A stretch of DNA of 53,578 nt. It comes from a virus (lineage: Duplodnaviria > Heunggongvirae > Uroviricota > Caudoviricetes). The first letter of the stretch is position 1; each line of letters begins with the position of its first letter. Both the position numbers and the translations under genes were made by a program. Of the stretch, positions 16,230-17,054 are shown piece by piece. The notes under the pieces were generated by a model, which worked only from the letters and a program-made list of their open reading frames with translations, was not told the DNA's origin and searched no databases. Location: the IMG/VR virus record IMGVR_UViG_2671181188_000017. One strand, written 5' to 3'.

Positions 16230-17054
16230 TTGCAATGTTCATTAATATACGTCTCACGAATAATTCATAGATATTGCAAAATGGATATTACTGAGTTTCC
16301 TTCTGGAGTAATTGAACACCTTGGCTGGTATGTATACCGATTGATTGATCCGAGGGACGGAAGCACCTTCTATGTAGGGAAAGGCAAAGGTAACCGCGTA
16401 TTTGCCCATATGCGCGGTGAAGTGGCAGCGACTGATGATGACGAGTTACTGAGCAACAAGCTAAAGCAAATTAGAGAAATAAGGTTAGCAGGACTTGAGG
16501 TTATCCATGTCATCCATCGACACGGAATGACTGATGAAAAGACGGCGTACGAAGTCGAAGCAGCACTTATTGATGCCTACCCTGGGTTAACGAATATCAT
16601 GAATGGTGCTGGCAGCAATGAATTCGGCGCCGCGCATGTCAAAGAGTTGATAGCAACATATCAACCCGAAACCATAACATTTCATCATAAAGCATTAATG
16701 ATTTCCGTTAACAGAAGTGCAAAGGATTCAGAGCTTTATGATGCGGTTCGATTTAGCTGGCGCATTAATGTCTCTCGCGCCAGCCAAGCAGAAGTCATTC
16801 TTGCTACTGTAAGGGGGATCGTTCGAGGGGTTTTCATTGCTGATAAATGGCTCAAATCAACACGTGAAAATTTCCCTACGATGAAATACTGGGACGAGGA
16901 TCCGGACTTTGAGGCAACACAAAGTTCTCGCTATGGTTTTGAAGGTCGAGAAGCCCCACCTGAAATAGCAAATCTTTATCTTGGAAAAAAAATACCAGAT
17001 GAATTAAGAAAAAAAGGAGCTATGTCCCCGGTCCGTTACTCACCTAATTTTTGA
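16230..17054 (+). CDS. GIY-YIG nuclease-domain protein (moron)
   Basis: N-terminal [29 protein letters not shown] (GIY-YIG-type motif); about 170-aa C-terminal region of unknown function; likely start at MDITEF (about 16278). Confidence 0.6.

Follow-up and report, generated by a model that had tools for sequence, protein, structure and literature searches.

A gene near one end of a prophage, within a 53,578-nucleotide stretch of viral DNA (hereafter, the window), is identified by its sequence as that of CMoRE (PD-T4-3), a type IV restriction endonuclease. We put the probability that its product works as a direct immunity against T-even phages, carried as prophage cargo, at about 95%, a reading extrapolated from near-identical proteins. 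The family has already been characterised and crystallised; hence, the gene is not new, and with the family solved nothing is added mechanistically. The analysis does supply a better label, CMoRE/PD-T4-3, a 5hmC/5ghmC-specific type IV enzyme, where the RefSeq name ‘LEM-3-like GIY-YIG domain-containing protein’ tells less. The host strain is predicted to be resistant to T2/T4/T6-like phages through a prophage gene, and this predicted resistance bears on phage therapy and biocontrol of O157-type Escherichia coli by T-even phages.

Identity of the gene and its translation start

PD-T4-3 was discovered in ECOR68 (Vassallo et al. 2022, PMC9519451); the names ‘PD-T4-3’ and ‘ECOR68’ are absent from the main text of that paper and apparently occur in its figures alone. 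The system was renamed CMoRE, for Cytosine Modification Restriction Endonuclease, by Liu et al. (Nat Commun 2026, PMC12923530), who describe it as a single-gene system. The original prediction, made from the window's letters, had described a protein with an N-terminal GIY-YIG motif, considered it a possible defence moron and proposed a profile search as a check. This search returned a full-length match to the PADLOC PD-T4-3 profile PDLC04031 (E = 2.7e-140, 464 bits, profile positions 1–255 of 256), and the suspected moron is thus an experimentally validated defence system (PADLOC; PMC12923530). The PHROG profile search gave a match to phrog_5356 (E = 2.6e-143). Two pairs of PDB entries align end-to-end with the protein: 9U75/9U8D from E. 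coli O157:H7 (E = 3.7e-172, 253 of 257 residues identical, 98.4%) and 9U7U/9U7Z from APEC O1 (E = 1.1e-150, 219 of 257, 85%). Because the E values of these matches run from 1e-140 to 1e-172, chance is ruled out. Residues 1–257 pair without gaps with residues 6–262 of both 9U75 and 9U7U, which makes the two-domain layout colinear.

The GIY-YIG motif was borne out by Pfam, in which PF22945 (LEM-3_GIY-YIG) scored 54 bits against a cut-off of 27 over residues 45–127 of the long open reading frame (ORF); the generic GIY-YIG family PF01541 reached just 13.7 bits against a cut-off of 22.6. The crystallised protein, 98% identical, has this fold, which confirms the assignment. No family was matched by the C-terminal half in the Pfam or NCBIfam scans, and the whole protein matched zero NCBIfam families. 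The N-terminal part alone gave a weak match to phrog_314, ‘homing endonuclease’ (E = 0.002). No annotation as a homing endonuclease with a mapped target site was encountered.

The observation of the gene is thus confirmed as real, and its start codon is corrected. The six-frame ORF list, compiled mechanically, gives an ORF of 274 amino acids with a TTG start at 16230–17054 (+), with an in-frame stop upstream at 16182. The ORF is present as originally predicted but its start is not: translation almost certainly begins, as read from the sequence, at ATG 16281, 51 nt further downstream, and yields 257 residues.

16281–17054, + strand: CMoRE/PD-T4-3 coding sequence, 257 amino acids plus stop, equal to RefSeq WP_000355484.1
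16230–16280, + strand: in-frame TTG extension, probably 5′ leader rather than coding, as the profiles and the crystal numbering begin at 16281

This start was chosen because the RefSeq coding sequence, the profile starts and the numbering of the crystal paper all agree on it. The RefSeq coding sequence of strain 7784, whose genome is 100% identical over the stretch, is 774 nt long and corresponds exactly to 16281–17054; the PADLOC and PHROG profiles both start at residue 18 of the long ORF; and numbering from ATG 16281 reproduces every residue named in the crystal paper (Y17, Y19, Y31, R80, V92, L96 and Y127).

The translation is unchanged in strains 7784 and FDAARGOS_1277, and the ORF is intact and identical across several unrelated genomes. 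The coding sequence is found at an identity of at least 95% in about 15% of complete E. coli genomes (838 of 5426), 823 of which cover at least 80% of its length. The crystallised ‘O157:H7’ sequence is the allele of strain PA20 and comes from a locus that matches that of the window gene.

A nucleotide search of the phage collection found nothing but a 47-nt match in the pin flank. At the protein level, lytic jumbo phages infecting Serratia, Pectobacterium, Pantoea and Pseudomonas have genes for full-length CMoRE homologues with an identity of 38–45% (records H67–H81, for instance Serratia phage Moabite, 6406–7161, and Pseudomonas phage OBP, 158703–159449), where they carry the labels ‘GIY-YIG endonuclease’ or ‘putative homing nuclease’. 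These homologues may have a role against co-infecting phages with modified DNA.

Prophage setting, cassette and expression

The 3′ part of tRNA-Thr(CGT) is directly repeated over 47 nt, once at 13912–13958 and once in the tRNA-Thr gene at about 52134–52210 (−), and on the basis of this att repeat the prophage spans ~13.9–52.2 kb. The CMoRE gene lies inside these bounds at the integrase-distal end, in keeping with its predicted place at a prophage end between a tRNA-Ser scar and an invertase: the scar is the remnant at 16036–16104 (−), and beyond the gene comes an ORF for a Pin-type serine invertase, with its start at 17184/17229. In reference genomes the prophage reads tRNA-Thr, integrase, lambdoid early genes, HK97-type head, contractile tail, baseplate and ymfQ, followed by the invertible tail-fibre segment, pinE, CMoRE, the tRNA-Ser remnant, an AraC-family regulator, an IS integrase fragment and the far att. 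The order in e14 of K-12 is ...ymfQ-stfP-tfaP-tfaE-stfE′-pinE-mcrA-attR. The e14 tail module is 90–98% identical to that of the window and the slot beyond pinE shows no similarity; this slot holds another type IV enzyme in e14, and the analogy that had been drawn with mcrA is therefore apt.

In two other genomes (L004 and L005), the prophage family is integrated elsewhere, e.g. beside tRNA-Pro, and carries the gene at the corresponding end. The sole stretch that the window has in common with them (95–97% identity) has different neighbours on both sides, and delimits a cassette.

16083–17117, + strand: cassette moving as a unit, with ~200 nt (198) of putatively promoter-bearing DNA upstream, the gene and 63 nt downstream
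16036–16104, − strand: 3′ remnant of tRNA-Ser(CGA), 69 nt, a relic att copy at the left edge of the cassette, 97.1% identical to E. coli tRNA-Ser genes
16220–16248, + strand: candidate sigma-70 promoter, weak (TTGTGA, 17 nt, TAATAT; 8 of 12 matches, read by hand, below the scan threshold)
17074–17115, strand not assigned: stem-loop after the stop codon (RNA fold −21.9 kcal/mol, z = −2.4)

Depending on the genome, the cassette is next to pinE, an acyltransferase gene, a lipase-family gene or a DinI-like pseudogene. With the CMoRE ORF as its only gene and with such varying neighbours, it fits a single-gene system that has no obligatory partner. The tRNA-Ser remnant was not called as a gene by ARAGORN; the Rfam alignment shows its anticodon arm, with CGA, and a long variable arm. 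The stem-loop is probably a terminator between the convergent CMoRE and pinE genes of the reference genomes, and was missed by the terminator scan because it has no clean U-run. It also follows the gene in the two other genomes, where a near-identical copy precedes the cassette as well; no second copy was found within the window. Rfam also gives, at 17078–17183 (−), a match below threshold to the Shigella chromosomal sRNA CssrB (30 bits against a gathering threshold of 76, E = 0.0016), for which this stem-loop largely accounts.

It is conceivable, if rather doubtful, that the CMoRE cassette moves among prophages integrated at different sites by recombination at short conserved flanks and that the slot after pinE, at the integrase-distal end of prophages with an e14-like tail, is a dedicated exchange point for modification-dependent (type IV) nucleases. 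The flanks may be the tRNA-Ser remnant or a hairpin on one side and the post-stop hairpin on the other. The proposal draws on the five contexts sampled, with McrA filling the slot in e14 and CMoRE filling it here; cargo hotspots of prophages are already a well-known concept.

The consensus scan around the gene called no + strand promoter and no terminator, and neither a strong sigma-70 promoter nor a Shine-Dalgarno sequence is recognisable upstream. That the gene is expressed in the source strain is therefore an assumption, made because related strains share its upstream DNA unchanged. The gene might be imagined as complete yet unexpressed or inactive, left to decay at a prophage end undergoing rearrangement, and its surroundings do show decay (the IS integrase fragment, the tRNA remnant, a truncated pin gene and, in the adjacent satellite, a fragmented Lamassu system), as well as the missing consensus promoter. 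The full-length ORF is nevertheless identical to alleles kept in unrelated lineages, and the 198 nt upstream, which travel with the gene, are 100% identical to those of O157:H7 genomes. From its native promoter, the O157:H7 gene drove strong defence, lowering the plating of T2, T4 and T6 by ~1e5-fold, and the APEC O1 gene from its native promoter gave a weaker defence (PMC12923530). In a native clinical isolate, moreover, PD-T4-3 was one of only two active defence systems, acting against Tevenvirinae (10.1101/2024.12.20.629700). A silent gene is on this evidence very unlikely, and an expressed, functional CMoRE is the reading that we retain.

Several further observations concern the DNA around the cassette. 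The left att copy (13912–13958) abuts the integrase gene of a P4-like satellite (12569–13801), placing both elements in tandem at thrW; psu and ogr/delta-like genes of the satellite lie at ~8050–8880. Its cargo hotspot contains a Lamassu system (9289–12565, −) that appears fragmented, with LmuA split over two ORFs (profile positions 10–140 and 141–333), LmuB split over three (positions 3–199, 231–412 and 428–608) and LmuC intact; O157:H7 genomes annotate matching Lamassu pieces as separate coding sequences. The interval from the att copy to the tRNA-Ser remnant contains an IS integrase-core fragment (rve_3; 14306–14671, +) and the AraC-family regulator gene (14713–15465, −) with a low GC content (~35%). 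This regulator may be PatE, the acid-resistance regulator of prophage CP-933H in EHEC. Only a prophage remnant is found at the corresponding locus of ordinary O157:H7 strains such as PA20 (L003), where the tail fibre abuts broken replication genes, and a complete-looking prophage of ~38 kb is present in the window and in strain 7784; the CMoRE alleles of the full and remnant forms differ by 4 amino acids.

The invertase gene next to the cassette is itself rearranged. Relative to the reference, two neighbouring stretches have each been flipped without changing position: 17737–19634, which corresponds to the normal tail-fibre switch, and 17157–17741, which corresponds to the pin gene minus its last 13 codons. 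The junctions of the inversion (17148–17173 and ~17730–17755) are hybrid 26-bp crossover sites with an exchange at the central AA/TT, the partners being the normal pix site near the pin 5′ end and a poor secondary site inside the pin 3′ end. Pin keeps residues 1–171, loses its last 13 amino acids (C-terminal ISTLYKKFPVGDK) and is fused in frame to the C-terminus of a gp53-like tail fibre (ORF 17229–18110), and the orphan 3′ end of pin lies antisense at ~17115–17162, just past the CMoRE stop. By analogy with Hin, we take the lost 13 residues to be probably the helix-turn-helix recognition helix. The invertase has probably inactivated itself and frozen the tail-fibre switch. The junction of the pin inversion is present in none of the 5426 complete E. 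coli genomes; the arrangement does occur in the assembly of an independent public read set (SRR23524067, Logan), which is 100% identical to the window for 5 kb. That invertases of this family can use secondary (‘quasi’) sites has been documented in work cited by two papers (PMC4134206; PMC4270481).

Residues of the allele and its predicted action

The layout of the protein follows that of the crystallised enzymes.

16320–16661, + strand: GIY-YIG nuclease domain (Pfam PF22945), with Y17, Y19 and Y31 present
16434–16445, + strand: acidic run D52 D53 D54 E55, read from the sequence, of the autoinhibitory loop over the active site
16659–17051, + strand: linker and C-terminal modification-sensing domain, residues ~127–257, colinear with the 9U8D and 9U7Z chains

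CMoRE departs from the usual GIY-YIG domain by a third tyrosine (GIYxY-YIG), and Y17, Y19 and Y31 are all essential for its function (PMC12923530). In the window allele the motif reads GWY17VY19RL...TFY31VGKG, with all three tyrosines kept. From the spacing of the corresponding residues in other GIY-YIG enzymes, we infer R39, E93 and N105 to be the putative catalytic Arg, Glu and Asn, which the main text of the crystal paper does not number. A 15-residue acidic loop is inserted into the nuclease domain and lies over the active site (PMC12923530); its acidic run is DDDE here and in APEC O1, and DDDD in the crystallised O157:H7 allele. V92 and L96 of the dimer interface and Y127, which contacts 5hmC, are present at the matching positions, and all residues named as functional in PMC12923530 are kept. 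Compared to the 9U75 chain, four differences only are found, T51A, E55D, Q169K and N197H (the window residue being given first), and these are conservative natural variants. Two of the four fall in or beside the autoinhibitory loop. The residues at 55 and 197 are those of APEC O1; only Q169 is unlike both solved sequences.

The original prediction regarded the C-terminal region as uncharacterised; it is in fact the domain that senses 5-hydroxymethylcytosine (5hmC) and glucosyl-5hmC (5ghmC), as seen in the 9U8D and 9U7Z complexes. [quoted passage not shown] The crystals hold the free nucleotide, not DNA, and the two-site reading and the displacement of the acidic loop in the published model are therefore partly inferred. 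Purified CMoRE requires Mg2+ or Mn2+, binds and cuts DNA with 5hmC or glucosyl-5hmC, and neither binds nor cuts DNA with C or 5mC; such modification-dependent behaviour was demonstrated for the O157:H7, APEC O1 and Klebsiella proteins, and T4 with unmodified cytosine, T4(C), escapes (PMC12923530). The enzyme cuts in the pattern C N11 / N9 G, leaving 3′ overhangs of 2 nt, and for this it requires two modified cytosines; on T4 DNA it shows no strict dependence on sequence (PMC12923530). The enzyme is a tetramer, and its interface mutant V92S/L96S is inactive (PMC12923530). A 48%-identical homologue is likewise a modification-dependent nuclease, which at high dose attacks Mu DNA too (PMC12366544).

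Extrapolating from these proteins, the product of the window gene would form a tetramer, a dimer of dimers, whose C-terminal domain would bind DNA that bears 5hmC or glucosyl-5hmC. One dimer would read two modified cytosines ~21 bp apart, and the N-terminal GIY-YIG nuclease, with Mg2+ or Mn2+, would cut between both in the C N11 / N9 G pattern, leaving 2-nt 3′ overhangs. The four-acid loop over the active site would exclude ordinary or 5mC DNA, so that host and prophage DNA would be spared. Incoming genomes of T2, T4 and T6-like phages would be degraded within minutes and the cell would survive, which would amount to direct immunity, not abortive infection. The gene, with its own upstream region, lies as cargo past the pin invertase, at the end far from the integrase of a tRNA-Thr-integrated prophage with an e14-like tail, and both the lysogen and the prophage would thereby be protected from lytic T-even phages.

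The original prediction had left the choice between a restriction-like and an abortive-infection nuclease, the latter a toxin-like enzyme that degrades host and phage nucleic acid and kills the cell to protect the population. CMoRE does have a latent capacity for self-damage: the 4A mutant, in which the four acids of the loop are replaced with alanines, cuts ordinary DNA, loses discrimination between self and non-self and is toxic (PMC12923530). In the window allele this loop is intact (DDDE), and wild-type cultures with CMoRE grow normally at MOI > 1, with T4 DNA depleted genome-wide within minutes while the read depth of host DNA is unchanged (PMC12923530). A corresponding result has been reported for the ECOR68 protein, as cited in PMC12923530. 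The restriction-like half of the prediction thus stood; given the published survival at high MOI of cells with an allele that differs by 4 amino acids, the abortive-infection reading was rejected, and we give it scarcely any weight. The chance that the gene encodes a free-standing homing endonuclease of the I-TevI or Seg type, cutting one specific target in a homologous genome that lacks the endonuclease so as to spread its own gene, is negligible and this reading too was rejected: the phrog_314 match and the homing-nuclease labels of the jumbo-phage homologues speak for it, but that match spans the shared catalytic domain only, the C-terminal half has no homing DNA-binding modules (NUMOD, zinc finger or helix-turn-helix; no Pfam or NCBIfam match) and binds 5hm-dCTP in the crystal structures, the near-identical protein cuts the whole T4 genome in a modification-dependent manner with no strict sequence (PMC12923530), and the gene occupies a cargo slot that varies between genomes, neither inserted into a conserved target gene nor adjacent to one. 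Direct restriction of T-even DNA by CMoRE remains the preferred reading.

Comparison with known systems

The catalytic fold of CMoRE is the GIY-YIG fold of I-TevI, the Seg proteins and the N-terminal domain of UvrC, and UvrC is the nearest structural neighbour of the CMoRE nuclease domain (PMC12923530). CMoRE differs from the homing enzymes and UvrC in the extra tyrosine (GIYxY), the 15-residue acidic insertion and an unrelated C-terminal domain, and in having a defence role and no sequence-specific target.

PvuRts1I/AbaSI and GmrSD are closer in function. Like CMoRE, they join a modification-sensing domain to a nuclease, act on hydroxymethylated or glucosylated T-even DNA and cut at a fixed distance from two modified bases. 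Their nuclease folds and sensing domains, however, are different ones, the sensing domain of PvuRts1I being SRA-like, and no sequence match between them and the window protein was found in any scan run. PvuRts1I is compared with CMoRE in PMC12923530.

McrA (EcoKMcrA) of e14 resembles CMoRE in being a single-gene, modification-dependent type IV enzyme and in filling the cargo slot that directly follows pinE, at the end with attR. The two proteins are nevertheless unrelated, and their slots share no DNA similarity; mcrA is co-directional with pinE in e14, whereas the CMoRE gene is convergent with it. McrA is an HNH nuclease that acts at methylated or hydroxymethylated cytosine sites, and CMoRE is a GIY-YIG nuclease.

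Among the solved CMoRE proteins, that of APEC O1 shares the motifs and an identical DDDE loop with the window protein and differs by 38 substitutions, mostly in the C-terminal domain. The O157:H7 protein is equal in length, two-domain layout, motif, acidic loop, interface residues and Y127, with T51 in the window for A, E55 for D, Q169 for K and N197 for H. Its locus is also shared, namely the thrW prophage, beside the AraC-family gene and pinE. The carrier prophage is of full length in the window, in contrast to the remnant of ordinary O157:H7 (PA20).
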